Shown here piece after piece: positions 4,438 to 53,495 of a DNA stretch of 53,495 bases (position 1 is the stretch's first letter; each line of letters opens with the position of its first letter). The stretch comes from an uncultured Spirochaetota bacterium (GTDB lineage: Bacteria > Spirochaetota > B62-G9 > DRHN01), in assembly GCA_964347455.1 (NCBI GenBank), contig CAYFYU010000012.1, positions 6,730 to 60,224 on the forward strand. The letters run 5' to 3'. Under the pieces are notes generated by a model that did no database searches, was not told the origin of the DNA, and saw only the letters and a program-made list of their open reading frames with translations. The position numbers and the translations under genes are program-made.

Positions 4438-4659
4438 TCAGTAACCAGAGGTCCATTTAGTCGCTGCATCTTCTGTTTCCTGTTCCAGGCTAATCTCCTC
4501 TTCATTAAGATGTATGAGATATCTCCAAACGATGTTTCGCAGAAGCCCACATTCCTCGTTCTGTTTTTTCCACTGCTTACATCGATATTGTAGGCAGTGA
4601 ATGAGCCCCTTATGTATTGGACAGTATACAAAGTCCTCTTCACCCGCATCTATTTGCAA
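4438..4659 (-). CDS. Small hypothetical Cys-containing protein (73 codons)
   Basis: TTG start at 4659, preceded on the minus strand by AAGGGAGGGG (plus-strand 4662-4671). It has four Cys (YCPIHKGLIHCLQYRC...EEC). No family recognised. The competing 75-aa ORF in another frame has no SD. Confidence 0.4.
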   Translation of the reverse strand: MQIDAGEEDFVYCPIHKGLIHCLQYRCKQWKKQNEECGLLRNIVWRYLIHLNEEEISLEQETEDAATKWTSGY

Positions 4660-6571: not shown

Positions 6572-7001
6572 AAATGTTCCATCTGTGATTAGGGTTTTCC
6601 CTCCATCCATTGTACTAAAAATTAATTAGCCCTTTTCAAGTATTCTTGGAACTTTCGTTCTAAAGGTAAGGTAAGTCCGATACGATATCTTTCTTTTTCT
6701 GCGGAGCTATGCCATTCCTCAGCAGAGATAAATCCCTCCAGGAGGTATCAATATCGGAGCCAATACCTTTTGGTATACGCCCATTAAAGGATGATACCCT
6801 ACGGGGCCTATTTTCAGTTGCTGGTATCAACCGTGAAAAGCCTCCATTTCCTGCTTAAGAAGGATATGCGGTGATGAGGATGAAACGAAAGCGCGCATCG
6901 GAGTAATCTGATCCTCACGGTAAGCCATGTAACTGCGAGGAGTAAACCTTGGAAAAATCCTCATGCAGGGAAGCATGAGAACTATCAAGGAGGGTAGGTG
7001 C

Positions 7002-12868: not shown

Positions 12869-14353
12869 ATGGAAACAGATGAAAGTTTAGACGAAAAAAC
12901 TGAAAATTCGATGAAAACAGATGATGACATCGAGGAAAAAGCTAAACCTAAAAGCAATAATGGCGAGGAACAAACCTTAGAAGATCCTATTTACACTGTG
13001 GATACTGAGTCCGTCATTGAAAACGGAGGTGGGAAAGTTGCCGTCGTCAAAAAGATGAAGCGAAAAGTGGATGAGAAGAAAAAGATAAATTTTGCAAAGC
13101 TCAACATTAATGATCTGGCAAGCATGACTATATCGGGTCTGTCATCCCTGGCACGTGAATTCAATATTGAAGGAACGAGTCGGATGAAGAAGCAGGACCT
13201 TATATTTACTATATTACAGGCACAAACAGAGAAACATGGTCTTATATTTGCGTCGGGAACGCTGGAAATATTACAGGATGGATATGGATTTCTTCGTTCT
13301 CCCAGTTATAATTACCTTCCTGGTCCTGATGATATATACGTATCACCGTCACAGATACGTTTATTTAGTTTAAAGACAGGCGATACTGTCTCGGGACAAG
13401 TCCGACCACCCAAGGAAAACGAACGGTTTTTTGCCCTATTGCGTGTTGAAGCTGTAAATTTTGAGGATCCGGAGGTCGCACAGAGAAGAATTCTCTTTGA
13501 TAATTTAACTCCGCTCTATCCCGACGAACGCATCAACCTTGAGGTTACCTCAGATAAAATATCAATGAGGATTGTAAACCTATTTACACCGATTGGAAAG
13601 GGTCAGCGAGGCCTCATTGTTGCCCCTCCGAGAACAGGAAAAACAATCCTTATTCAACAAATCGCTAATTCAATAACCACTAACCATCCGGAAATCGTCC
13701 TCATAGTACTTCTCATCGATGAGCGACCAGAGGAAGTAACCGACATGGAGAGGAATGTCGATGGGGAGGTAATCAGCTCAACCTTCGATGAGCCGGCAAC
13801 ACGCCACGTACAGGTTGCAGAGATGGTAATCGATAAAGCGAAACGGCTTGTTGAGCATAAGAGGGATGTAGTTATTCTACTCGACAGCATAACGCGACTC
13901 GCACGGGCTTACAACCAGGTTGTACCGACATCGGGAAAGATCCTCTCAGGTGGTGTTGATTCCAATGCTCTTCATAAACCAAAACGGTTTTTCGGTGCTG
14001 CAAGAAATATCGAAGAAGGTGGTAGTTTGACTATTATGGCGACTGCATTAATTGATACGGGGAGTCGGATGGATGAGGTGATATTCGAGGAATTCAAAGG
14101 CACAGGTAATATGGAGATTCATCTCGATAGACGACTTGTTGAGCGGAGAACTTTTCCTGCAATCGATGTGTGGAAATCGGGAACCAGAAAAGAGGAGCTG
14201 CTCCTGTCTGACAACGAGCTCCAGAAACTCTGGGTGTTACGAAAGGTTATGCAGCCTATGGATGAAATTGAGGTCATGGAATTGTTGATAGAGAAAATGA
14301 AGGCAACAAAGAATAATGCTGCGTTTCTCAGGTCGATGAACAATTCGGCATAA
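12869..14353 (+). CDS. rho: Transcription termination factor Rho, with an N-terminal charged extension of about 75 aa
   Basis: 494 aa. It has the Rho N-terminal and cold-shock-like RNA-binding region ([14 protein letters not shown]), a Walker A motif (PPRTGKT) and a RecA-type ATPase core. Confidence 0.95.
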
Positions 14354-14523
14354 TGAGTTTCTGTTGAAAAAGTGACATTTCGATAAAATTTAGAAATTTT
14401 AAAAATGTATTTTATGTAGATTAATAAGACCGAAAGTCATTCTTGAGCGGATGCGACTGACACGAAAAAATTTGGAATGCAAGATCAAATATATTATATT
14501 TATTACCTGAAGCGGATATAATT

Positions 14524-14736
14524 ATGAAAAAAGGAATACATCCTGAATACAAGCCGGTTGTCATTACCTGTGCATGCGGTAATAAAATCGAGACACGATC
14601 AACCGTCAATCTAACCCATGTTGAAATATGTTCTGCCTGCCATCCATTCTTCTCTGGAAAGCAAAAACTTGTCGACACTGCCGGAAGAATCGAGAGATTC
14701 AGAAAAAAATATAACATAAAAAATACTGAGAAATAG
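14524..14736 (+). CDS. rpmE: 50S ribosomal protein L31
   Basis: 70 aa. [20 protein letters not shown]...[13 protein letters not shown] is the canonical L31 sequence with its Cys motif. Confidence 0.95.
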
Positions 14737-15339
14737 TCCTCTTTAAGTACCGCTTTTTTTATGAATTATGGACCTCCCCACCAGCAGAGCGGTCGTCTCC
14801 TACAATAACCTCAATTTAGGCACATAAAATTTCTGTTCATTGGCGAGTTGCAGTGTTCCTAAGAATAGCATACGATACGTTGTAAAAAATCATACATACC
14901 TGTATACTTTTTCATACTTTTTATGGTCCTAACTTATACAATATCCCAGAAGTAAGCCCCTCCTATCCTCTAAATTGTCCTTTCTGTTAAGTTCTGTCAC
15001 TATCCAACTTCATTTCCCATAACCATTCACAGAATCAATTTAAGTTTTCACAATCATGTAAAAGACATATTATTTATTAATATATATATAATTAAATAAA
15101 TTTCATGTCTATATTTTTGAAAGAATATTTGTCTCAGTTGAGAAACTGAGGTTGTACATTCCTTCTAATGTAAAGAAGGCCTCTTGGAATCAATTACCCT
15201 ATTGTAACTAGTTGTATCCATTTTACCTCAAAAAGTTATAAAATTCTATACATTTTAGTTGTAATAAAGACTGGGCAATTTGATGATTTTATAATTCTTT
15301 ATATTATTAGACTTAAAATTAGGAAATTTTGTTAAAAAG

Positions 15340-15355
15340 TGGCATGTGAATTGCT
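15340..15355 (+). promoter_or_regulatory. Sigma54-type -24/-12 promoter candidate (TGGCATGTGAATTGCT)
   Basis: GG (15341-15342) and GC (15353-15354) are separated by exactly 10 nt. There is one mismatch to TGGCAC-N5-TTGCW. The element ends 22 nt before ATG 15378. Confidence 0.6.
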
Positions 15356-15377
15356 TCATAACAGAAGGGAGAAAAAA

Positions 15378-16220
15378 ATGGCAGTGACAACAGAAATAAT
15401 AACAGAAAACAATAACTTGAATGCTTATCTTTATCAAATTAGAAATGATAGACTTCTTACAGCAGAAGAAGAAAAAAGTCTCTCAAAGAGGGTAATGAGA
15501 GGAGATAAATTAGCACGGGAAAGCCTCATTAACTCGAATCTTCGACTCGTTGTAAAGATTGCACGAGGTTATCTTACCCATGATATGGAACTGCTCGATC
15601 TTATTCAGGAAGGGAACCTTGGATTGATCAAGGCCGCTGAAAAATTTGATTTTCGAAAAAATGTACGATTCAGCACCTATGCCTCTTTTTGGATAAAGCA
15701 GAGCATTGCCCGAGCTCTCTCAAATAAGAGTCGAATGATTCGTCTCCCTCATAGAAAAGAGGAGAAACTGAGGAAAATTGCTAAAGCGTCGCAGAAGCTC
15801 TCAAAGGTTAATGGCAGTGTACCGGATGCGGGTGAGCTTTCATTGGAAACGAACATCGATGAAAAAGAGATTCGCCGTATACAGAGTCTACCCGATCGAG
15901 TTCTCTCAATAGAATCTACCGATGAACATGAAAATTTTTCGCTGAAGAATGTTCTGGAGGACACGAAGTATAATCCCGATTATATTGTGATGCGAAAATA
16001 CCTGAAGGAAAAAACTTCGGAGATGATGAATATATTGACCGATAAGGAGCGAAAGGTAATTCTCTACCGCTATTCCTTCATGAATGGAAAGAAATACACG
16101 TTAAAAGACATTGGGGAAGAACTCGTCATTTCTCCAGAAACGGTGCGACAGATAGAATTAAAAGCTCTTAAAAAAATACGTGAGCATTTCAGCCATCTAA
16201 AAGAGCTACTTTGGGAATAA
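15378..16220 (+). CDS. Sigma70-family alternative sigma factor (group 2/3, RpoS-like size; no region 1.1)
   Basis: Track ORF is 15339..16220. ATG 15378 lies 6 nt after GGGAG. Region 2 reads DLIQEGNLGLIKAAEKFDFRKNVRFSTYASFWIKQSIARAL. Region 4.2 reads LKDIGEELVISPETVRQIELKALKKIR. Confidence 0.85.
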   Translation: MAVTTEIITENNNLNAYLYQIRNDRLLTAEEEKSLSKRVMRGDKLARESLINSNLRLVVKIARGYLTHDMELLDLIQEGNLGLIKAAEKFDFRKNVRFSTYASFWIKQSIARALSNKSRMIRLPHRKEEKLRKIAKASQKLSKVNGSVPDAGELSLETNIDEKEIRRIQSLPDRVLSIESTDEHENFSLKNVLEDTKYNPDYIVMRKYLKEKTSEMMNILTDKERKVILYRYSFMNGKKYTLKDIGEELVISPETVRQIELKALKKIREHFSHLKELLWE

Positions 16221-16246: not shown

Positions 16247-17812
16247 TCAATAGCCTCTAGACATCGCTCGAGTCTGGTCTTTTTTGTAGAGCTCAGCGTA
16301 ATAATAGCCTCTATTTTTCAGATTATCCTTAATAGATTGAGGGAAGGGAATATATCGCCAAAATATGGTTCGAACCTCCCGGCTCAGTTTCTGCATACCC
16401 TGCGATTCAAAGTGAATCCAGAGAATATAATCCTGGATAAAATACTCTTTGAGGTCACCCTTAAGCTTATTTTTTTGTGCATATTCGTAGTAATAACCTG
16501 TAAGTCCCTCCTCCATCCAGTAATGAAGGGCTTTTTCTTTTGCAACCTGCCATCTTAAATCACCAAGTGCGTAGAGTAGTGCAGTCTTCACATCACGAGG
16601 GTACATGGGCATTGCGATTCTCCCCTTACTTGTCGCCTTATTCGATCTCTCAAAAGGCTCCCAGCAGATGCCGTAGTCCCCAAATGATGGGACTATTATG
16701 AAGTGTGGTACAATGCGATGCTCTTCTCCTTTATAGGTTCTTTTAAATATATTAGGATCCACAGACTCAGATTCCCTCAATACCGTATCGAGCCGTTCTT
16801 TTGTACATATGTCATTTTCGATACTAGGCATATAAGCCTTGAGGAGAAATGGAAAGTGATTTCCCTGTCTTCCGACGGTCATTTTATTCATCTGGCGGAT
16901 CGATGAAAATTCATCGCTAACTGTTTTTGTATCGACCTCAATTTTCATATCACCGCCCTTATCTCTTATCGATGATATTTCTTGATCTAAAGATTTTAAA
17001 GATCGATAGCTACTCTCCATCTCTTTATCCGATTTTAACAGACTCTTCACGATATCCTGAACCTGCACAAGCGCCTTTTTTTGATCCGGGGTATATGGTG
17101 CGATAATACCACCGAATTCATCCTTTTTAAGATGGTTGACAATTACAGCGACACTGCTCTGCAGGCTTTTTTCAATTAAAAGATGCTGCTCAATTTTTTG
17201 TCGTAAACCGGCTATTTCAGCTTCTCGGGCCCCCGATTTGCGCTCCATCTTACTTTTTAATGCGGAAGGAGATCGTTTTTTTGATTTAACCGTTTCGTCA
17301 ACAGCACTTGGCTTTATCAAACCATTTCCAATATTGAAAAGCCATTCATCCACATAAAAGATTCCGTCGTATGGCTTCTTCGCTTTGTTGATCTTAATAA
17401 GAAGTTGTTTTTGATTATCATCGATAAAATTGCTGTTGAGAAGACCGTACCGAAAAAGGGACTGTTGCGTTGAATTTAGATTTTCAAAAAAATTTTCGAC
17501 AAGATAAAGAAGCATATTCCAGTATGCAGGCGTTATCTTTTCACGGTACATTGATTTTTCATCTTTGTCTTTGGCCTTTGAAAATTTCGCAATATTATCA
17601 TGCAAACGCTGGCCTTGCTCACCACCTTCGCTGATTATCTTTGAATAAGAAGCCCCATCATCAAGAACTTCCTTTATATCGATCGGTTTAAACTCTAATT
17701 TCGGTATTGGTTTTCCAGTTTCTGTGATCGGTTCAACTGTGATCTCCTCTTCCTCTTCATCAATACCGAGAAGATCTGCTATTTCCGGATCCAATGCCTC
17801 ATTATCTCCCAT
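16247..17812 (-). CDS. Hypothetical protein, 521 aa
   Basis: Track ORF is 16247..17908. ATG 17812 (MGDNEALDPE) lies 6 nt after AGAGGA on the minus strand. It has an acidic N-terminus, a central coiled region and a Trp/Tyr-rich C-terminal domain. No family recognised. Confidence 0.6.
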   Translation of the reverse strand: MGDNEALDPEIADLLGIDEEEEEITVEPITETGKPIPKLEFKPIDIKEVLDDGASYSKIISEGGEQGQRLHDNIAKFSKAKDKDEKSMYREKITPAYWNMLLYLVENFFENLNSTQQSLFRYGLLNSNFIDDNQKQLLIKINKAKKPYDGIFYVDEWLFNIGNGLIKPSAVDETVKSKKRSPSALKSKMERKSGAREAEIAGLRQKIEQHLLIEKSLQSSVAVIVNHLKKDEFGGIIAPYTPDQKKALVQVQDIVKSLLKSDKEMESSYRSLKSLDQEISSIRDKGGDMKIEVDTKTVSDEFSSIRQMNKMTVGRQGNHFPFLLKAYMPSIENDICTKERLDTVLRESESVDPNIFKRTYKGEEHRIVPHFIIVPSFGDYGICWEPFERSNKATSKGRIAMPMYPRDVKTALLYALGDLRWQVAKEKALHYWMEEGLTGYYYEYAQKNKLKGDLKEYFIQDYILWIHFESQGMQKLSREVRTIFWRYIPFPQSIKDNLKNRGYYYAELYKKDQTRAMSRGY

Positions 17813-17964
17813 AATATCCTCTTTGTAAGTGAGAACGTTCTTTTTTAACATTTTAATACGAATGGTTGAAAAAATAAATAGAAAAAAATGGTATTGGTCT
17901 GGAAACAAAGGAGATTGTAAGGTTCAAAAAGTGGTTATTGTGAAGATAAGAGTGAAGTCTATTT

Positions 17965-25834: not shown

Positions 25835-26548
25835 ATGGAAATTGAAATGAATCTCAAGAAAGATAACGGTCAGTTTAGAAAATGGTATTTGTTTGTTCTA
25901 TTTCTTTTACTCATTCCTCTCCTCTTGTCATGTGCAACAACAGGAAGTATGTACAGAACTGAAGAAAAGAACAGCAGGGGCGTCTGGCACAGGGTTCAAG
26001 AAGGACAAACTCTATGGCGAATAGCGAAAACCTATCGTGTAACACTGGAAGAGATAAAAGAAGCCAATGATATAGTCGATGTAGTACACGTTGCAAAGGG
26101 GACATGGATCCTAATACCAAACGCCGATCGGATTCTCTATGTTCAAGGCAATGTGGATACTCTTCATGAAAAAGAAGCCGATCTTGGTTTCATGTGGCCA
26201 TTAAAGGGTGAAGTTGTTAATTCCTTTGGTAAGAAGGAGAATGATTTTTTATACGGAATTGATATTAAATCGACAAGAAATCAAGATGTGGTAGCAACTC
26301 TTGAAGGGAAAGTGGTACTGTCCGGTACGATAAGGGGGTATGGGACCACGATTATCATTGAGCACGAAAATAATTACTGCAGTCTCTATTCGAAGAACAT
26401 AAAAAGCCTGGTCAAAGAGGGACAGCTTGTTGAGAAGAACAGCGTAATCGCAAAAGCAGGAACGTCTACTTCAGTTACAGGCGATATTGTGCACTATGAG
26501 CTCTTCTTTAAGGGTAGACCGGTAAATCCACTCTATTATTTGCCTTAA
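25835..26548 (+). CDS. NlpD-like lipoprotein: LysM domain plus degenerate M23 (LytM) domain
   Basis: Lipobox LLLSC. The LysM domain reads HRVQEGQTLWRIAKTYRVTLEEIKEAN. The M23 fold reads GIDIKS...GYGTTIIIEH...HYELFFKGRPVNP. The expected Zn-ligand His of HxxxD is Tyr (LYGIDI), and the first His of HxH is lost (DIVHYE). Confidence 0.8.
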   Translation: MEIEMNLKKDNGQFRKWYLFVLFLLLIPLLLSCATTGSMYRTEEKNSRGVWHRVQEGQTLWRIAKTYRVTLEEIKEANDIVDVVHVAKGTWILIPNADRILYVQGNVDTLHEKEADLGFMWPLKGEVVNSFGKKENDFLYGIDIKSTRNQDVVATLEGKVVLSGTIRGYGTTIIIEHENNYCSLYSKNIKSLVKEGQLVEKNSVIAKAGTSTSVTGDIVHYELFFKGRPVNPLYYLP

Positions 26549-26670: not shown

Positions 26671-27645
26671 ATGAATTCCTTTGGCAGTGAAAATGATGGA
26701 GCGATGCTACATCTGCGAGATGATGAAGATGATCCGCTCGCTGTTTACCTAAAACAGATTAAAAGGATATCCCTTCTGACGGCTGAAGAGGAGAAAAAAT
26801 GCTATATTGAAATGAGATACTATCGGGATAAATTGAACAATTTAGAGCGGGACTTAAGATCACGTAAATTGGCTAAAGGAGAATATGATGGGGAAAAAAA
26901 GAAGTGGGAAGGTAAAATTGTAGAGGTCAAAAACAGAATTATTACGGCGAATCTGAGGCTTGTCGTAAGCATTGCGAAAAAATATCAGCACCGAGGTCTC
27001 TCATTGATAGACTTAATAGATGAGGGTAATATCGGTTTAATTGAGGCAGTCGATAGATTCGATTATACAAAGGGGTTCAAATTCAGTACCTACAGTACAT
27101 GGTGGATAAGGCAATCAATAATTAAAGCCATTGCAAACAAGGGCAGATTGATAAGAGTGCCAATTCATATGCTTAATACCATTAAAAAGTGTTACTTTGT
27201 AACCAAGCAGCTTACACAGAAGTATGGACGGGAACCCACTGCAGCTGAAATATCTCAAAAATTGGGGGTACCTGAAGAAAAGGTACTAAAAATTTTACAC
27301 ATTGCTCAAGAACCAGGTTCCTTAGAGGTACCTGTAAATCCAGATAGCACTTCCGAACTTGGTGATCTCATAGTCGATATTGATAGTCAGAGCCATGAAG
27401 ATGCTGTTTTTTTTATGGCACTTCAGGAACTTATCAAACAGGTCTTAGACAAACTAAGTAAGCGAGAAAAGAAGATCATTGAACTCAGATTTGGTCTTGA
27501 TGGCGAAGGACCTTATACACTGGAAGAGACAGGTAAACTCATCGGCATTACAAGAGAAAGGGTAAGGCAGATACAGAACAACGCGATAAGAAAATTGAAA
27601 AATTTCAAACTTTCCGAAGATCTAAAGGAATTCATCGTCCGGTAG
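26671..27645 (+). CDS. Sigma70-family sigma factor, group 2-like (RpoS/RpoD-like core, no region 1.1)
   Basis: 324 aa with [60 protein letters not shown] and region 4.2 [27 protein letters not shown]. It has a charged insertion between regions 1.2 and 2. Confidence 0.85.
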
Positions 27646-45836: not shown

Positions 45837-47246
45837 GTGGATCTGAAACCGGAATTACATATCAAACAGACACAGAAATTAATAATGACTCCCCAGCTGC
45901 AGCAAGCGATAAAAATGCTTCAGCTGTCAAACCTTGAGTTAAATCAGGCTATTGAAGAAGAATTAATTGACAATCCTGCACTTGATAAAGAGGACAGACA
46001 GGAATATTCCTTAGATGAGTTGAGTGAAGAGGATCTTTCCCAAAGGATAGAGCAGACCAAGGATGAGAGAATCGGAGAGGATTTCAACGAGGAAACCCTC
46101 TATACTGAACAACCCTATGCATCTCCTGATTACAGCTCTGGTGAAGATAAGAAGAGAGAATTTTTAGAAGGAGCAGTATTCCGTGAGGAAACGCTTAAAG
46201 AATACCTGATGCGACAGTTGCATCTAACAGATATTGGACCGGAAGAGTTGAAAATTGCCGAGATCCTAATCAGCTATATCGATGAGCGGGGATACCTCTC
46301 CATTTCCCTGGAAGTCATATCAGGTGAGTTTTCAATTTCAGAAGAAAGACTTGAAAAAGTTTTGACCATTGTGCAAAGCCTTGACCCACCAGGGGTCGGG
46401 GCACGTGAAATAAAAGAGTGTCTTTTGATTCAGCTAAGGAACGAAGGGAATCATCCAATTGCTGAGAGGATCGTCTCGGAATGTTTAGACGAATTAAGGT
46501 TGAAAAAGTATGATGAGATAGCAAAAAAGTGTAAGATTTCAAAATCGAAACTGCAAGAGGTGATTTCATTAATATCCCAATTGGAACCCTATCCTGGGCG
46601 ACAGTACTATTCTGATGATATCCGATATATTGTTCCAGATGTTATTGTAGAGGAGCGGGACGGTGAATTCGAGGTAATTCCAAATAGCTCCTCCTTACCG
46701 CGCCTAAGAGTAAATCGCTATTTTGAAAATCTTCTCAAGAAGAGCAATATTGAAAAAAGGGTGAAAGAATTTGTTTCTGAGAAAGTAACACGTGCAAGAA
46801 TATTTATGCATTCTATTGAACAAAGAGAGAGCACCTTGCTCAGAGTAATGAAAGCAATCCTTGAACGACAGATAGATTTTTTTGAACAAGGTCCGATGTA
46901 TCTTAAACCAATGATTTTTTAATGATACGGCGACCACCGAGATCTACACGAATCAACGATAAGCAGGATTACTTCCTCAAAATATGTTCAGACTCCTTTC
47001 GGTGTTTACGGTTTAAAATATTTCTTTTCCAATCCTATCCCTGCACAGGGACAGGGAGATTATTCATCAACGAGCATCAAAGAAATAATAAAGGAAATTA
47101 TTGAGAATGAAGAAGGAAAAAAGCATCTCAGTGACCAAAAAATAGTTGAGTTGCTGCAAAAAAGGGGAATAAAAATCGCAAGAAGAACTGTGGCCAAGTA
47201 CAGAAAAGACCTGCATATCTTGCCGTCAAATTTAAGGAGGTCATAA
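45837..47246 (+). pseudogene. rpoN: RNA polymerase sigma-54 factor RpoN; reading frame broken in this assembly by an Illumina adapter string (probably not a biological pseudogene)
   Basis: GTG 45837 gives MDLKPELHIKQTQKLIMTPQLQQAIKMLQLSNLEL (region I). The ORF stops at 46920-46922. The same frame resumes at 46947 with HESTISRITSSKYVQTPFGVYGLKYFF (HTH) and the RpoN box IARRTVAKYR. It ends at TAA 47244-47246, which overlaps the hpf ATG. Confidence 0.9.
46921..46949 (+). other. Exact 29-nt Illumina P5 flow-cell adapter sequence (non-biological)
   Basis: AATGATACGGCGACCACCGAGATCTACAC is read directly at 46921-46949 and is identical over its full length to the P5 oligo. It contributes the TAA and TGA codons that break rpoN. 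Confidence 0.95.
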
Positions 47247-47611
47247 TGAACATTTCAATAATCGGACGTAAGGTAAAGATCACACCTGATGTGAGAAAAT
47301 ATATAGAAAAAAATATGAAAAAACTCGATCATTACGCTGAACATATATATGATTTCAAGCTAATAATAAAGAAGGAGAGACACATTTACTTTGCCGAAGT
47401 GAATATCAATGTAAAGAAGAAGATGATCCACATTTTTGCAAAGACTGCTGACATATTCAGCGTTATCGATACGCTTTACGATAAAATCGAAGTGAAAATG
47501 TTCAGGTATAGAGATAAACTGACCACTAAACGAGTCATACCACTTAAAGAAAGTGTTACTGAAAGAGGGGTGCAACCTGATACACTCCAAAGTCTGCAAG
47601 AGACTGGCTAA
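47246..47611 (+). CDS. hpf: Ribosome hibernation promoting factor / sigma-54 modulation protein (RaiA/HPF family)
   Basis: 121 aa. MNISIIGRKVKITPDVRKYIEKNMKKLDHY is the typical HPF N-terminus. Its position after rpoN is conserved. Confidence 0.85.
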   Translation: MNISIIGRKVKITPDVRKYIEKNMKKLDHYAEHIYDFKLIIKKERHIYFAEVNINVKKKMIHIFAKTADIFSVIDTLYDKIEVKMFRYRDKLTTKRVIPLKESVTERGVQPDTLQSLQETG

Positions 47612-47647
47612 AGTCATACGGGGGGACCCTGTAAAAAAGGTAGTACA

Positions 47648-48613
47648 ATGGATAGATTAGAAAAAGTTAAAGGCATCACGATTGCAAAACTGCTCGATCT
47701 TGCACGGGAAGGAGATATCCTCCACCTGCGTATTATAACTGGGGAGAAAACTCTTCAAAAAACAATTATGAATTATGATATCAATCGTCCGGGTCTCGCT
47801 CTTGCGGGTGATTATGATTACTTTGATTATGAAAAGCTTCAGGTTTTCGGACGAGGAGAATATCATTACCTACTGAAAATCGTGAATAACGATGAACTGT
47901 CAAGTATTGAGAACTTCTTCAAATATCCCGTTTCCTGCTGTATCTTCTCACACGGCCATGAACCTCCCTCTATTTTTACCGATATGGCCGAGGATGCTGG
48001 AGTTCCCATCCTCGTATCGTCGTTACCGACCAACGTAATGAACACCCGTATTACGAAAATCCTTGAAGATGCCTTTGCACCAAGGACGAGTACTCACGGA
48101 GTTCTTGTTGAGGTATTCGGTGTTGGAATCTTGATAGTCGGAAAAAGCGGTGTTGGTAAGAGTGAAACCGCCTTAGAGCTTATCGAGAGAGGACACCGGC
48201 TCGTTGCTGACGATGTTGTTGATATACGCTCAATATCTGACACTTTCCTTATAGGGAGTGGGGCAAAACTTATTCGGCATCACATGGAAATTCGTGGATT
48301 GGGAATTATTAATATCAAACAGCTTTTTGGTGTTGGAGCAATTAGAGATAAAAAGCAGATACAGCTCGTTGTGAGCCTGGAAGAATGGGATGTAAAAAAA
48401 GAGTATGATAGAATCGGGCTTGAGGAGTCAGTTTATACAATCCTCGGGGTCGAAATTCCCCTTCTTACTGTTCCAGTCAAACCAGGCAGAAATATACCGA
48501 TATTAATTGAAACTGCAGCGATGAACTTCCGCCTCGCAAAACTCGGGTATAATACAGCGAAAGAGCTCAATAGAGAGCTTATGAATCAGATAGAGCAGAA
48601 GAAAAAGGTTTGA
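47648..48613 (+). CDS. hprK: HPr kinase/phosphorylase
   Basis: 321 aa with the P-loop GKSGVGKSETALELIERGHRLVADD and the signature IRGLGIINI. Confidence 0.9.
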   Translation: MDRLEKVKGITIAKLLDLAREGDILHLRIITGEKTLQKTIMNYDINRPGLALAGDYDYFDYEKLQVFGRGEYHYLLKIVNNDELSSIENFFKYPVSCCIFSHGHEPPSIFTDMAEDAGVPILVSSLPTNVMNTRITKILEDAFAPRTSTHGVLVEVFGVGILIVGKSGVGKSETALELIERGHRLVADDVVDIRSISDTFLIGSGAKLIRHHMEIRGLGIINIKQLFGVGAIRDKKQIQLVVSLEEWDVKKEYDRIGLEESVYTILGVEIPLLTVPVKPGRNIPILIETAAMNFRLAKLGYNTAKELNRELMNQIEQKKKV

Positions 48614-48631
48614 TCCAGGCTCATTGACGGT

Positions 48632-48907
48632 ATGGTGGATAGGGAAATAATCATTAAAAATAAAACGGGTCTTCATGCAAGACCTGCAGCAGTTCTTGTT
48701 CAGAATGCGAATGAATTCAAGTCGGATATATTTCTGGAAAAGGATGAGGACAGGGTAAATGCGAAAAGCATAATGGGTGTGATGATGTTGGCCGCAGGTG
48801 AAGGGTCTAGAATAAAAATTATTGCTGAAGGCAAGGATGAAAAGGAAGCTGTTGACAGGATATCAAAACTGCTCGAATCAGATATCGACAGTGAGGTAAA
48901 AACATGA
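48632..48907 (+). CDS. ptsH: Phosphocarrier protein HPr
   Basis: 91 aa. His15 context is GLHARPA and Ser46 context is VNAKSIMGVM. Confidence 0.9.
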   Translation: MVDREIIIKNKTGLHARPAAVLVQNANEFKSDIFLEKDEDRVNAKSIMGVMMLAAGEGSRIKIIAEGKDEKEAVDRISKLLESDIDSEVKT

Positions 48908-49386
48908 AAAAACTGTGCTTCTGTCTCATTGCTGTACTCATTTTTTTAGTACCATGTTTATCTTATGCACAAAAAGATGACCAATACGTAAGAAAAGACC
49001 CGATACTTGCGGGAGCACTCTCATGGTATGTCCCTGGTCTGGGACAGTTCTATTCAGGTGCTTTTTTAAAGGGTGCCGCTTTTTTGATCGTTGAAGAAGG
49101 ACTGCTTATTACGACCATAATTTCAGTGGCTGAGCTTGAATTAAGCGTGTCAAGTGGTGTAAGCCTTGGTTTGAATATTACCGCAAAGGACGATACGAAT
49201 CGTAATGAACGAACACTGGCAATTGTCATGGGTTCTGCTCTTGTTGTTGTCCACTTCGTTAACATTATTGATGCTGTAAATTCTGCAAGAAATTTCAACA
49301 GGCGTCAGGAGAACGGCCTCTTTGCCAATATGGGGTATAATCCCGACAAAAATGAGTATAACATCGGTTTGTCAGGCCGATTCTGA
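48904..49386 (+). CDS. Hypothetical envelope protein, paralogue A
   Basis: 160 aa with a signal peptide. The motifs DPILAGALSWYVPGLGQFY...KG and VNIIDAVNSARNFNRR are shared with the next gene. Confidence 0.5.
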   Translation: MKKLCFCLIAVLIFLVPCLSYAQKDDQYVRKDPILAGALSWYVPGLGQFYSGAFLKGAAFLIVEEGLLITTIISVAELELSVSSGVSLGLNITAKDDTNRNERTLAIVMGSALVVVHFVNIIDAVNSARNFNRRQENGLFANMGYNPDKNEYNIGLSGRF

Positions 49387-49448
49387 AAGGCCTATACATT
49401 AATAGAACCTCTGCAATAAGGAGTGTTCTTTTTAAGGATCTTCTTAGG

Positions 49449-50063
49449 ATGAAATGGAAACTTATAAGTCTTGTTCTCCTAACTATTCTATTTGCCCATA
49501 TTAATCTTCATTACGGTCGCGCAGAAGAACACTATAAAGGGCAGATTATTATAACTGAGGGTATAATTCTATCATCAGGCAATGGCATGCCTATCTCTCA
49601 GCTTCAAGATGAAGGATTGGCAGAAATACAACGCTTTGAAACAGAAAAGCTTTTGGTTAAACCGAAAGATCCCTTTATTGCTGGTCTTCTTTCCTGGTTT
49701 ATGATGGGCGTCGGGCAGATATACGTACAGGAATACTGGAAGGGGTCGATTTTTATTGCTACCGATCTCGCCAATAAGGTAGCACTGATCTTGCTCGTAT
49801 CGCATATTAACTCTAGGTATGGACCCTCAGATGATGAAATCGTCAATATTGATTGGGAGAGTTTTGATGCAGTAACAAAAGTATTTATTGTCTCCTATCT
49901 CGTCGAGTCTCTGGGTTTACGAATTTACAACGTCGTTGATGCAGTTCAGTCGGCTCACAGGTTTAACGAACGGTATTTTTCTGGCAGAGAGAGTAGCGGT
50001 TTTTCGTTCGATATTGAAGATGATGGGGTTTCACTCAATTACAATTACTGGTTGGGTGAATAA
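49449..50063 (+). CDS. Hypothetical envelope protein, paralogue B
   Basis: 204 aa with a signal peptide and the motifs DPFIAGLLSWFMMGVGQIY...KG and YNVVDAVQSAHRFNER. Confidence 0.5.
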   Translation: MKWKLISLVLLTILFAHINLHYGRAEEHYKGQIIITEGIILSSGNGMPISQLQDEGLAEIQRFETEKLLVKPKDPFIAGLLSWFMMGVGQIYVQEYWKGSIFIATDLANKVALILLVSHINSRYGPSDDEIVNIDWESFDAVTKVFIVSYLVESLGLRIYNVVDAVQSAHRFNERYFSGRESSGFSFDIEDDGVSLNYNYWLGE

Positions 50064-50066
50064 TTC

Positions 50067-50645
50067 ATGAAAAAAGTTGGTATTTTGTTTTTTTTTAATG
50101 TTATTTTCATTTATTTTGTAATATCCTCCCTCTTTGCGGATCCGCTGTCTGTACAATTTAACAATCATACTATTGAAAACAAAAAGATAAAAACATCCTA
50201 TATCATTGTGGGAGACATCTCCTATGATACAGTTGACGCGATTAAAAATGGGATAAGTGCAAAATTATTTGTAACCATTCAGCTGTCAAAATCCGCTGGG
50301 TTTCTCGGAATTGGGAAAAGCACCTTTGTCGAAAGAGCTGAGTCATTCGACATTTCATTTGATGTATGGGATAACAGGTTCATCATTGAGGATAAAAAAC
50401 GAAGAAACTCTTTTCAGGCGGCCAATGCATACGAAATAGTAAGTGCGATTAACTCCAACATTATTCCACTCACAATGGATATATCACCAATCAGGGGAGC
50501 GGAGCGTCTCTACCTGAGAGCAAAGATTAAGATACAGACGATTAAACTATTTCCCCCGTTTGGAATATTTCTGCTTTTTTTCGATCCCTGGAACTACGAG
50601 AGCGACTGGGAGAGAGTAGAGGTTGTCATTCAAAAGAGCAGTTAG
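50067..50645 (+). CDS. Hypothetical secreted protein upstream of the histidine kinase
   Basis: 192 aa with a signal peptide (ILFFFNVIFIYFVISSLFA) and a beta-rich sequence. No family confidently recognised. Confidence 0.45.
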   Translation: MKKVGILFFFNVIFIYFVISSLFADPLSVQFNNHTIENKKIKTSYIIVGDISYDTVDAIKNGISAKLFVTIQLSKSAGFLGIGKSTFVERAESFDISFDVWDNRFIIEDKKRRNSFQAANAYEIVSAINSNIIPLTMDISPIRGAERLYLRAKIKIQTIKLFPPFGIFLLFFDPWNYESDWERVEVVIQKSS

Positions 50646-50649
50646 AGGC

Positions 50650-52386
50650 ATGAAAATCCGAAAACTACTGAAAAAAGAAAATCTTCTCCTTACGATTGTC
50701 ATAATAGTATTTTCATTTTATTTTGCAGCAATAACCTTTGTTATATTCACCGTCGAGCCACTTGAGCTTTTGGAATCTCTCACCCGTAATAAGCTTCTGT
50801 TGATCACCCTGATATTGCTGTTTTCAATCATGTTATTTCTCGTCGTGTACAATGCAATTCAGATAGTAATTGACCGCGTGAAAAATCGGGAGGGATCGAA
50901 GTTCAGATTGAGACTAACACTTTTTTTCCTTCTCATTACTCTGATACCTATTGTACCGCTCTCACTCATTTCAAATAATCTTATCTCAAAAAGTATCAAC
51001 CTATGGTTTGTCAAGGGAATCGAAAGTTCTCTCGTTAACGCATTGGAAGTGTCAAAAGAGCTCTATCAGAAGTTGTCGGAGGAAAGTATTGCTGAATTAG
51101 AGAATCGCTGTGGTGACTGTGATTTGGAAGGAATTGCTGATATAACTTTTAAAAAAATTGACGGTATATTTTCGTTCTCTCCCCTGCTCAATCGGTTCGA
51201 GAAAATATATGTAAAGGATAACCGGGCAGGCACTGACCTTTTGAACTCACTCACAAGCGCCCAACTACCGAGCGATTCATGGAAGAGAATTAATGCAGGA
51301 GATACAGAGTATCTCATAATTCCAGCTAAATCCAATGCCGAAGGTACCCTCTACATTGCACGATCGATACCAAAACAGATAAGAGATTACGCGGGTACAA
51401 TTTCAGACGGACTCCAATACTACCGTACACTCAAAATAGTCAGGCAACCGATGAAAGGTCTCATTATTCTTTTCTTTCTTGTTATTACCCTTCCGTTTAT
51501 TCTACTATCCTTCTATTTGAGCCTCATTATTTCTCGACAGGTTACAGTTCCAATTGGTGAGCTTGCCCGGGCAACACAGAGAGTAGCAGAGGATGATCTC
51601 GAATATTCAATTAGGGTAAGTGCAAAAGATGAGTTGAAGCTACTCATCGATTCGTTCAATAGAATGACCAATGATCTCCGTGTGAATAAGGAGCTTCTTA
51701 AACATTCTGAGAGGAGTGCTGCCTGGCGCGATATTGCAAGAAGGATAGCTCACGAGATAAAGAATCCTCTAACCCCCATAAAACTCTCTGCTGAAAGAAT
51801 ATTGAAACTATACAAAAAGAATGACCGTTATCGAGAGGTTTTGACTAAGGGTATTAACACGATCATTACTGAGGTTCAAAATATTAACGAAATGGTCAAT
51901 GAATTCTCACAGTTCGCTCGCTTTCCGGATACTAAGCTGGGAAAGCATGACATTATTGCAACAATACATGATATATTGGATTTTTTAAGGGATACTCACA
52001 GAGACATCGTATTTAATTTTACCCACGATGAGGAAAGTGTGTATCTTCTGGTCGATGGACCACAAATACGCCGTGCATTGCTAAACGTTATCTACAATAG
52101 TGTTAATGCAGTTCAAGATAGCGGTGTTATATCGGTTGACTGTTATCCTAAGAGTGGGTCGGCTGAAGACAAGAACAAGTACATAGTAGCAATCTCGGAC
52201 AATGGCGGTGGTATTGATTCTGATATTCGCGACAAGATATTTGATCCCTATTTTTCAAAGAATAGTGAGGGCTCGGGACTCGGCCTTGCGATAGTTGAAA
52301 AGATTGTGCTTGACAACAGGGGCCGAATCTGGTTCGAGAGCAAGCTTGGAAAAACAACTTTCTTCATGGAGTTTCAGAGAGTATGA
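50650..52386 (+). CDS. Sensor histidine kinase, NtrY/AtoS-like (multi-TM, HAMP, HisKA, HATPase)
   Basis: ATG 50650. It has N-terminal TM segments, a HAMP-like linker (VPIGELARATQRVAEDDLEY...FNRMTNDL), the H-box RRIAHEIKNPLTPI and ATPase boxes DNGGGI and GSGLGLAIV. Confidence 0.85.
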   Translation: MKIRKLLKKENLLLTIVIIVFSFYFAAITFVIFTVEPLELLESLTRNKLLLITLILLFSIMLFLVVYNAIQIVIDRVKNREGSKFRLRLTLFFLLITLIPIVPLSLISNNLISKSINLWFVKGIESSLVNALEVSKELYQKLSEESIAELENRCGDCDLEGIADITFKKIDGIFSFSPLLNRFEKIYVKDNRAGTDLLNSLTSAQLPSDSWKRINAGDTEYLIIPAKSNAEGTLYIARSIPKQIRDYAGTISDGLQYYRTLKIVRQPMKGLIILFFLVITLPFILLSFYLSLIISRQVTVPIGELARATQRVAEDDLEYSIRVSAKDELKLLIDSFNRMTNDLRVNKELLKHSERSAAWRDIARRIAHEIKNPLTPIKLSAERILKLYKKNDRYREVLTKGINTIITEVQNINEMVNEFSQFARFPDTKLGKHDIIATIHDILDFLRDTHRDIVFNFTHDEESVYLLVDGPQIRRALLNVIYNSVNAVQDSGVISVDCYPKSGSAEDKNKYIVAISDNGGGIDSDIRDKIFDPYFSKNSEGSGLGLAIVEKIVLDNRGRIWFESKLGKTTFFMEFQRV

Positions 52387-53495
52387 AAACAGTCCTTGTC
52401 GTAGACGATGAAGAGAACATCAGAGAGACATTGAAGGATGTATTGGAGGACGAGGGTTATAAGGTATTTAATGCCGAGGACGGCAAGAAAGCCCTTGAAG
52501 TTCTCCACAAGAATTTCGTTGACGTTGTACTTCTCGATCTCTGGCTTCCCAGAATGGGGGGAATAGAAGTTTTACAGCAGATAAAGGGAATGGAGAACGC
52601 GATGCCCGTCATTATCATTTCGGGCCACGGTACGATTGATGCAGCAGTTAAGGCCACAAAGGAGGGTGCTTTTGATTTCATCGAGAAGCCTCTCTCCATT
52701 GATCGTGTTCTTAACGTGATCGGTCATGCGATAAAAATAAACGGGCTCAAAAAGGAAAACATTGCACTCCGCGAAAAGCAGCAGAATACCTATCATATGG
52801 TTCGAGGAAAATCAGTATCTTTCAGAAAAATTGAAAGTCTAATTGACAGCTGTGCAATGAGTAATTCCCGTGTCCTTATAACAGGAGAAAATGGTACGGG
52901 TAAAGAGGTGGTTGCTAGGAGAATACACCAGAAAAGTCAAAGGAGAGATACACCCTTCGTAGCTGTCAATTGCGCTGCTATCCCTCAAACACTCATAGAG
53001 GCTGAGCTGTTTGGGTATCAAAAGGGCGCATTTACCGGTGCTATAAGCGACAAGCGAGGTAAATTTGAAATTGCGGATGGTGGCACTATATTTCTCGACG
53101 AAATTGCGGATATGAGTAGTGAAGCACAGGCAAAAGTACTTCGCGTGCTTGAGGAAATGCAGATTGAGAGAATCGGTGGCGTTACTCCTATAAAGATCGA
53201 TGTCCGGGTTATTGCAGCAACAAACAAGGATCTGTCTGTACAGATAAGAGATGGTAATTTCAGGGAAGACCTGTACTACAGACTTAATGTTGTTCCTATC
53301 CATATCCCTGCACTTCGTGAGAGAAGGGAGGACATTTTTGAGCTCATCCAGTATTATCTGGATTATTTTGCTCATGACAGTAATAGAAAGAAGAAAAAGA
53401 TATCCGCGAATGCACAGGATTTTCTCATAGAAGATTATTCGTGGCCGGGGAATATCAGAGAGTTGAAGAATTTAATCGAACGGCTCACGATTCTC
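52383..53495 (+). CDS. Sigma-54-dependent response regulator (NtrC/AtoC class), 3' end outside the window
   Basis: It is absent from the ORF track because there is no stop in the window. ATG 52383 overlaps the kinase stop (ATGA). The receiver domain reads MKTVLVVDDEENIRE...VVLLDLWLP. The AAA+ domain has GENGTGKE, an intact GAFTGA, FLDEIA and RERREDI. Confidence 0.9.
   Translation, partial: MKTVLVVDDEENIRETLKDVLEDEGYKVFNAEDGKKALEVLHKNFVDVVLLDLWLPRMGGIEVLQQIKGMENAMPVIIISGHGTIDAAVKATKEGAFDFIEKPLSIDRVLNVIGHAIKINGLKKENIALREKQQNTYHMVRGKSVSFRKIESLIDSCAMSNSRVLITGENGTGKEVVARRIHQKSQRRDTPFVAVNCAAIPQTLIEAELFGYQKGAFTGAISDKRGKFEIADGGTIFLDEIADMSSEAQAKVLRVLEEMQIERIGGVTPIKIDVRVIAATNKDLSVQIRDGNFREDLYYRLNVVPIHIPALRERREDIFELIQYYLDYFAHDSNRKKKKISANAQDFLIEDYSWPGNIRELKNLIERLTIL

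Follow-up and report, generated by a model that had tools for sequence, protein, structure and literature searches.

A probable sigma-54 promoter upstream of a Borrelia RpoS orthologue in an uncultured free-living spirochete

In the Lyme-disease spirochetes, transmission from tick to mammal hinges on a master switch, the Rrp2-RpoN-RpoS pathway, which is usually described as a novel or distinctive network of Borrelia. A related arrangement is described here in a 53,495-nucleotide (nt) stretch of DNA from an uncultured Spirochaetota bacterium (positions 6,730 to 60,224 of contig CAYFYU010000012.1); the whole of this stretch is called the window below. Comparison with related loci gives good confidence that the sequence TGGCATGTGAATTGCT (15340-15355, + strand) is a genuine sigma-54 promoter of the -24/-12 type. 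It would transcribe the gene located at 15378-16220 (+ strand), which encodes a group-2-like sigma70-family factor of 280 amino acids (aa) and is the free-living-spirochete orthologue of Borrelia RpoS (BB0771 type).

In B. burgdorferi the -24/-12 promoter of rpoS and its start site have been mapped, and transcription depends on rpoN and Rrp2 (PMC1976401). Activation by Rrp2 is reported to be enhancer-independent, no binding site having been found within 238 bp upstream (Burtnick et al. 2007; PMC1976401). Borrelia RpoS has been placed loosely among homologues from diverse bacteria, other spirochetes not being mentioned (Caimano et al. 2019). The second spirochete system to be considered is that of L. 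interrogans, an organism without RpoS, in which LIC_11549 is EbpB, an NtrC-like activator whose targets are not known (PMC12655853). A full-text literature search returned only Borrelia-centred work and no report of conservation of the cascade outside Borrelia; its coverage is incomplete and a prior description is possible. The Borrelia cascade is thus already known. What appears to be new, judging from the sequences compared here, is a member in an uncultured free-living spirochete and an arrangement spanning much of the phylum, together with two variant features, i.e., a putative enhancer and a predicted near-leaderless mRNA.

The element in the window has its GG doublet at 15341-15342 and its GC doublet at 15353-15354, with a spacing of 10 nt. 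It matches the consensus TGGCAC-N5-TTGCW at 10 of the 11 specified positions, the sole mismatch being C to T at position 6. The motif and the gene are on the same strand and are separated by 22 nt (15356-15377), the ATG being at 15378. A first-pass annotation made from the letters of the window had reported this spacing, the single mismatch and the 22 nt, and had taken the motif for the only intergenic candidate. All of this is borne out, no other candidate with up to two mismatches being intergenic. The list of open reading frames (ORFs) offered a GTG at 15339 as the start of the gene, which would make the motif coding. This start is rejected, since in many orthologues the frame is closed by a stop located between the motif and the ATG, and since the N-termini of the orthologues align from the ATG. 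The motif is thus non-coding.

Within the window, two matches to the consensus with at most one mismatch are observed, for 1.18 expected, and 30 of 100 shuffled sequences reach two. The other match, at 49780, is devoid of the GG doublet and is located inside an ORF. As the count in a single window is at chance level, the comparison with other genomes was used instead. It may be added that a stretch inside rho (13149-13164, TGGCACGTGAATTCAA) agrees with the promoter motif at 12 of 16 bases, among them TGGCA and an 8-base run (GTGAATT and the next base). It contains no GC doublet, it is coding, and the resemblance is probably due to chance.

The sigma protein was scanned against one genome per species, leading to 76 loci. 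For each locus the start codon of the homologue was located and the best match to the consensus was sought in the 300 nt upstream, at least 10 of the 11 positions being required. Such a match is present in 23 of the 24 orthologous loci from metagenome-assembled genomes (MAGs) of free-living spirochetes (46-80% protein identity). The gap between the end of the motif and the start codon is 19-29 nt in 22 loci and 43 nt in L013, and L019 (TGGCATGGAATTTGTG) is the one weak case among the free-living loci. The match is perfect in the Brevinematales MAG (L047), with a gap of 23 nt; it is also found in the Treponema MAG L039 (gap of about 89 nt) and in all 13 rpoS loci of Borrelia/Borreliella (58-71 nt). 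For the 33 loci of non-spirochete homologues (Planctomycetes, Bacilli, Selenomonadales, Clostridia and others), the search over 350 nt upstream gives no such match. The motif is thus retained in the relatives, where the first-pass annotation had suggested looking for its loss.

The 25 non-Borrelia spirochete loci, i.e., 379 kb read on both strands, contain 28 matches of this quality, of which 24 are at the promoter position. This positional conservation in related loci indicates that the match at 15340-15355 is not due to chance. When the upstream region of 15 genomes is aligned, the mean column identity is 58%, and TGG.A and TTGC of the motif are invariant, as are two blocks located further upstream. 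In other words, the DNA around them drifts and GG and GC do not change. The regulatory region persists when rpmE is the direct upstream neighbour as well as when a gene taken to be DUF1385-like lies in between; it thus belongs to the sigma gene.

Two Treponema loci can be set side by side. In the uncultured Treponema MAG L039, a motif matching at 10 of 11 positions (TGGCATAGTTTTTGCT) is located upstream of a sigma gene whose product has 39% identity. In another Treponema MAG (L058, 33% identity) the homologue is without the motif and falls outside the promoter-bearing clade described below. An RpoN-RpoS cascade may exist in part of the Treponema lineage.

The 280-aa protein contains the sigma70 regions 1.2, 2, 3 and 4. 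In NCBIfam it comes closest to RpoS and RpoD/SigA models, without reaching the curated cut-off of any of them. TIGR02394 (rpoS_proteo) comes first with 223.1 bits for a cut-off of 378.7, and NF004207 gives 217 bits for a cut-off of 394, i.e., the protein falls outside the proteobacterial RpoS family as defined by these models. Among sequences of the PDB, the best matches are SigA and RpoS. The protein thus resembles proteobacterial RpoS (sigma-38) by its group-2-like type, by regions 1.2 to 4 and by its top match, and differs from it by a score below the family cut-off and by a gene which is not beside an nlpD-like gene. Transcription of E. coli rpoS is not known to use sigma-54.

The relation to Borrelia RpoS is closer. 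Borreliella RpoS was taken from locus L028, where the flagellar neighbours are those expected for BB0771. It has 43% identity (182 bits) with the 280-aa protein and 34% identity (123 bits) with the product of the other sigma gene of the window (26671-27645). In a neighbour-joining tree without bootstrap, the promoter-bearing spirochete sigmas (window gene, MAGs, Borrelia, Treponema MAG, Brevinematales) are grouped in one clade; the 324-aa product of the other sigma gene and the non-spirochete homologues are outside that clade. On the basis of this greater similarity and of this single clade, the arrangement is to be considered as homologous to, and not merely analogous with, the RpoN-to-RpoS arrangement of Borrelia. 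The parallel with Borrelia, which the first-pass annotation had drawn, is thus supported by the retention of the motif in relatives as well as by orthology.

The second sigma70-family gene deserves separate mention. Its 324-aa product is RpoD-like according to NCBIfam and is much shorter than typical primary sigmas. Directly upstream is a LysM-M23 (NlpD-like) gene (25835-26548), and this order recalls nlpD-rpoS, the classical proteobacterial arrangement. The 324-aa protein was considered on account of that neighbour as the counterpart of Borrelia RpoS; this candidate is rejected by the similarity values and by the tree.

The comparison with the Borrelia cascade leads to the following likenesses and differences: (i) the downstream sigma is orthologous and the same promoter is located directly upstream of its gene (TGGCACAATTTTTGCA in Borreliella, TGGCATGTGAATTGCT in the window); (ii) in both cases one alternative sigma would gate the synthesis of another one by way of an AAA+ activator; (iii) the neighbouring genes differ, i.e., rho-rpmE in the window and flagellar flgI-flgJ in Borrelia; (iv) the free-living relatives have a dyad about 100 bp upstream of GG, which is not found in the enhancer-independent Borrelia promoter; (v) the distance from the GC doublet to the start codon is 20-30 nt in most of the free-living orthologues and 59-72 nt in Borrelia, so that the long leader of Borrelia has no equivalent here.

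At sigma-54 promoters, the standard geometry places the start of transcription about 12 nt past the GC doublet. For the window this gives a predicted start at 15365-15367 (+ strand), about 11-13 nt after that doublet. The Shine-Dalgarno sequence GGGAG (15367-15371, + strand), read directly from the sequence, ends 6 nt before the ATG, and the orthologues have GGAG-like purine runs in the same place. The mRNA leader would thus be about 12 nt long and would start at the Shine-Dalgarno sequence. Such a short leader had already been flagged as a caveat in the first-pass annotation. Counted from the C of GC, the start codon of the window gene is 23 nt away. This distance is conserved, at 20-30 nt, in 22 of the 24 free-living orthologues, and only L013 (44 nt) and L019 (15 nt) depart from it. 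These distances would correspond to leaders of roughly 8-18 nt, beginning at or just before the ribosome-binding site. There is thus little room for the control based on the 5' untranslated region that is described for Borrelia.

Further upstream, a conserved dyad (GTTATAAAATTCTATACA, 15235-15252, no strand assigned) has its centre 98 bp upstream of GG, at about -122 relative to the predicted start. When the loci are anchored on the promoter motif, the consensus of this family is about TGTATA-N6-TATACA. In 23 of the 25 free-living loci, a dyad matching at 9 or more of the 12 positions lies with its centre 95-105 bp upstream of GG; the background for this quality in the same loci is about one per 940 positions. 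In the alignment of the upstream region the dyad columns are invariant or nearly so. A possible weaker second copy (TGTAACTAGTTGTATCCA, 15203-15220, no strand assigned) matches at 9 of 12 positions and is located 32 bp upstream of the first, its evidence being weak in the window. A clearer second copy is present 16-34 bp upstream of the first in L001, L007, L009, L011, L013, L017 and L018 (16-24 bp in five of them), and L023 has a dyad at the place of the second copy while its proximal copy is below the threshold. The dyad or dyads are thus located at about -120 to -145 from the predicted start. This fits the usual distance of the sites of sigma-54 activators, which classically occur as paired dyads at about -110 to -150. 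The dyad is consequently interpreted as a putative enhancer, i.e., an activator-binding site.

Other dyad matches at 10 or 11 of 12 positions exist in the window (at 4613, 14901 and elsewhere), none of them with a sigma-54 motif about 100 bp downstream. The one at 14901-14918 (TGTATACTTTTTCATACT, 10 of 12 positions) is in the same spacer as the promoter, about 430 bp upstream of it. In the Borrelia and Brevinematales loci the dyad is absent; for Borrelia, this absence fits the enhancer-independent activation of rpoS by Rrp2.

Between the dyad and the promoter is a conserved AT-rich block (15292-15320, no strand assigned) with consensus TAAYTCTTWATATT ... AATTAMAA, in which the invariant alignment columns are T93, A94, A95, T97, T103, A112, T114 and A118. 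The whole region recalls the glnAp2/NtrC and nif/NifA promoters, in which a -24/-12 element is likewise separated by an AT-rich segment from a site of dyad symmetry, often present twice, at about -100 to -150. Nevertheless, the putative site TGTATA-N6-TATACA differs from the NtrC and NifA sites in sequence, and no consistent site for the IHF consensus (WATCAANNNNTTR) is found across the loci between dyad and promoter. Moreover, the target is a sigma factor gene and not a metabolic operon as in the classical sigma-54 systems.

A candidate for the activator is present in the window. A gene for a membrane sensor histidine kinase (LIC_11548-family/AtoS-like; 50623-52386, + strand) overlaps by 4 nt the start of a gene for a sigma-54 activator with receiver and AAA+ domains (52383-53495, + strand). 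The latter has GAFTGA at 53025 and is cut by the end of the window before its DNA-binding domain. The first-pass annotation had listed an NtrC-class activator with GAFTGA and a histidine kinase in the window, and both are indeed found. As in the classical sigma-54 systems, a response-regulator-type AAA+ activator with GAFTGA is paired with a histidine kinase. The kinase aligns over its full length with NCBIfam NF047496, the model of the LIC_11548 family (E 3e-71), with 241 bits for a curated cut-off of 750, and its second NCBIfam match is AtoS. The activator scores 430 bits with NtrX, 410 with NtrC and 403 with AtoC, all below the curated cut-offs. Rrp2 has been classed as AtoC-like (PMC3162934); the NtrX/NtrC/AtoC-like character of the window protein appears compatible with this class and is not diagnostic. 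The pair in the window is thus a plausible activator of the promoter, and that it is the cognate one is possible rather than probable.

From rpoN onwards, the order of the genes is hpf-hprK-ptsH, three small predicted membrane/lipoprotein-like ORFs, the kinase and the activator (45837-53495). This recalls the rpoN region of L. interrogans with kinase LIC_11548 and activator EbpB: the kinase of the window has its best family match in the LIC_11548 family, the next gene encodes a receiver-AAA+ activator, and rpoN precedes the pair by a few genes. The linkage of the two-component pair with rpoN may be ancient in spirochetes. The two organisms differ in that Leptospira has no RpoS and in that the kinase of the window is far below the family cut-off. 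As RpoS is missing in Leptospira, the LIC_11548/EbpB pair must have other targets there.

Taken as a whole, the locus would operate as follows. Sigma-54 RNA polymerase would bind the -24 GG and the -12 GC as a closed complex, inert without an activator. The phosphorylated activator would dock most likely on the dyad at 15235-15252, and possibly on the second copy, i.e., at about -120 and -145. It would reach the polymerase by DNA looping across the AT-rich block 15292-15320, and its AAA+ domain with the GAFTGA loop would hydrolyse ATP and open the closed complex. Transcription would start near 15366, leading to a leader of about 12 nt and to translation from GGGAG-N6-ATG. Once made, the sigma factor would direct the polymerase to the genes of its own regulon. 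Four parts of this scheme are predictions: where transcription starts, that the dyad serves as enhancer, which activator acts, and what the regulon comprises.

Several points weigh against this scheme. The motif count within the window alone is not significant. Sigma70-like hexamers are present upstream of the gene, e.g., TTGATG-16-TATTAT at 15280-15307, their count not being above chance. The predicted leader, about 12 nt long and starting at the ribosome-binding site, would be unusually short. The dyad is itself AT-rich within an AT-rich spacer, and it is absent in Borrelia, where activation needs no enhancer. The activator, without its DNA-binding end in the window, may serve other promoters, and the kinase resembles LIC_11548 of Leptospira, which has no RpoS. 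Finally, rpoN as given has an in-frame TAA TGA at 46920-46925; if these stops are real, the promoter would be silent in this strain. The chance-level count and the several sigma70-like hexamer pairs of the AT-rich spacer would suit a chance match, or a conserved site for some other DNA-binding protein, with the gene transcribed by a sigma70-type holoenzyme. This is extremely unlikely: the positions that do not vary coincide exactly with the sigma-54 contacts (GG and GC, spaced by 10 nt, in TGGCA and TTGC), in front of Borrelia rpoS the same element has been proven by experiment to be a sigma-54 promoter, and the motif is absent from the 33 loci of non-spirochete homologues. On the side of sigma70, the scan upstream of the sigma gene gives 12 hits for 7.3 ± 3.2 expected, none of them conserved as a -35/-10 pair. 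The stops in rpoN raise a different possibility, namely that the promoter is real in the lineage and dead in this strain, rpoN being a true pseudogene and the sigma gene being either silent or read from a sigma70-type promoter. In agreement with this, the window and a second assembly (L077) both give a truncated RpoN ORF of 361 aa. The gene (45837-47246, + strand, frame interrupted at 46920-46925) has its usual neighbours, in the order lptC-lptA-lptB-rpoN-hpf-hprK-ptsH. Its product gives Pfam matches for the activator-interacting, core-binding and DNA-binding domains, and the RpoN box ARRTVAKYR is at 47178. The presence of rpoN, as given by the first-pass annotation, is thus confirmed by the three domains and the box; an intact frame is not, owing to the two stops, which are probably artefactual. 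They lie inside a tract (46915-46949) made of a run of six T and of the 29-nt stretch AATGATACGGCGACCACCGAGATCTACAC (46921-46949), which replaces native coding sequence of equal length and which we take to be the exact 29-nt Illumina P5 flow-cell adapter. Three assemblies about 99.5-99.7% identical to the window disagree with it mainly there. L077 has a garbled version one base longer, 5 of its 18 mismatches being clustered at this place, and L079 has NN followed by the native-looking GAGTGTCGATCTACAC. In a relative with 89% identity, a stretch of equal length reads PMTLRDISQSVDLHESTISR, and the DNA of this relative agrees with the remnant in L079. The 105 codons past the break, including the RpoN box, are open to the natural stop. 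Because of the exact adapter, the disagreement between sister assemblies, the native reading in the relative and the open codons, the break is very probably an adapter-derived assembly artefact and the organism very probably has a working sigma-54; a true pseudogene is judged unlikely on the same evidence. As the promoter, the activator and the kinase are moreover all intact, a promoter dead in this strain is very improbable.

The remaining alternative touches only the enhancer part of the scheme. The promoter would be real and enhancer-independent, and the dyad and the AT-rich block would serve unrelated regulators (a repressor, a Fur/PerR-type co-factor like BosR, or a nucleoid protein) or a second promoter of the sigma70 type. 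The precedent is Borrelia, where Rrp2 was found to act without an enhancer and without any site within 238 bp upstream, and where BosR footprints beside the rpoS promoter on the AT-rich repeat TAAATTAAAT. The AATTAMAA of the block is of a similar flavour, the resemblance being a loose AT-rich one only, and the block holds TATAAT-like hexamers. Nevertheless, 23 of 25 loci, deeply diverged as they are, keep the dyad at 95-105 bp from GG, and a second copy is often found 16-34 bp farther upstream. Paired dyads at such distances are classical for sigma-54 activators, and no -10-like hexamer is as well conserved as the TAA.T columns of the block. This alternative is thus rather unlikely, and a sigma-54 promoter acted upon from an upstream dyad is preferred.

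The distribution of the promoter-gene pair suggests that the two-step sigma switch is old and widespread in spirochetes and not special to Borrelia. A more precise scenario can be proposed, for and against which we see about equal weight. In this scenario the RpoN-to-RpoS cascade would be an ancestral circuit of the phylum (at least Spirochaetia and Brevinematia), originally enhancer-dependent with paired TGTATA-N6-TATACA at about -120/-145 and with an almost leaderless mRNA. The Borrelia lineage would then have lost the enhancer and gained a long leader. If this is true, the loss of the enhancer would explain that Rrp2 acts from solution, and the long leader would be the base for later controls at the RNA level.

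The mechanism itself is unsurprising; the locus is useful for understanding how an intensively studied virulence switch arose and why it has its peculiarities. The presence of the pair in dozens of uncultured free-living spirochetes, in Brevinematales and in a Treponema MAG would give the Borrelia pathway an evolutionary origin. The natural variants, i.e., with or without dyad and with short or long leader, could explain the enhancer-independent action of Rrp2 and the heavy post-transcriptional control of rpoS. In the organism of the window, the timing of synthesis of a second, highly conserved sigma factor is predicted to be set by a two-component signal.

The G+C content of the window is about 40%, and the closest matches of its proteins come from uncultured spirochetes, 'Spirochaetes bacterium DG_61' being an example. 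Upstream of the sigma gene are rho (12869-14353) and rpmE (14524-14736), the latter being separated from the sigma gene by a 640-bp AT-rich non-coding spacer (14737-15377). No intrinsic terminator is found between rpmE and the sigma gene, and the search for known RNA families over 14300-15500 gives only a meaningless eukaryotic scaRNA hit far below the threshold. In 11 of 16 close relatives (L002, L003, L005, L007, L009-L011, L013, L014, L023 and L025), a gene for a membrane protein of about 310 aa is located between rpmE and the sigma gene. From the motifs ...HGAEHK...HPRCGTSF... its product is taken to be DUF1385-like. This gene is missing in the window, L001, L004, L006 and L008, and it has left no detectable remnant in the window.

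On the other side of the sigma gene, and convergent to it, a gene at 16247-17908 (- strand) encodes a 553-aa protein without Pfam or NCBIfam match. Its position is conserved, with 59-69% identity, in all 17 close relatives where the region is present, and a functional link of this protein with the sigma factor is possible.

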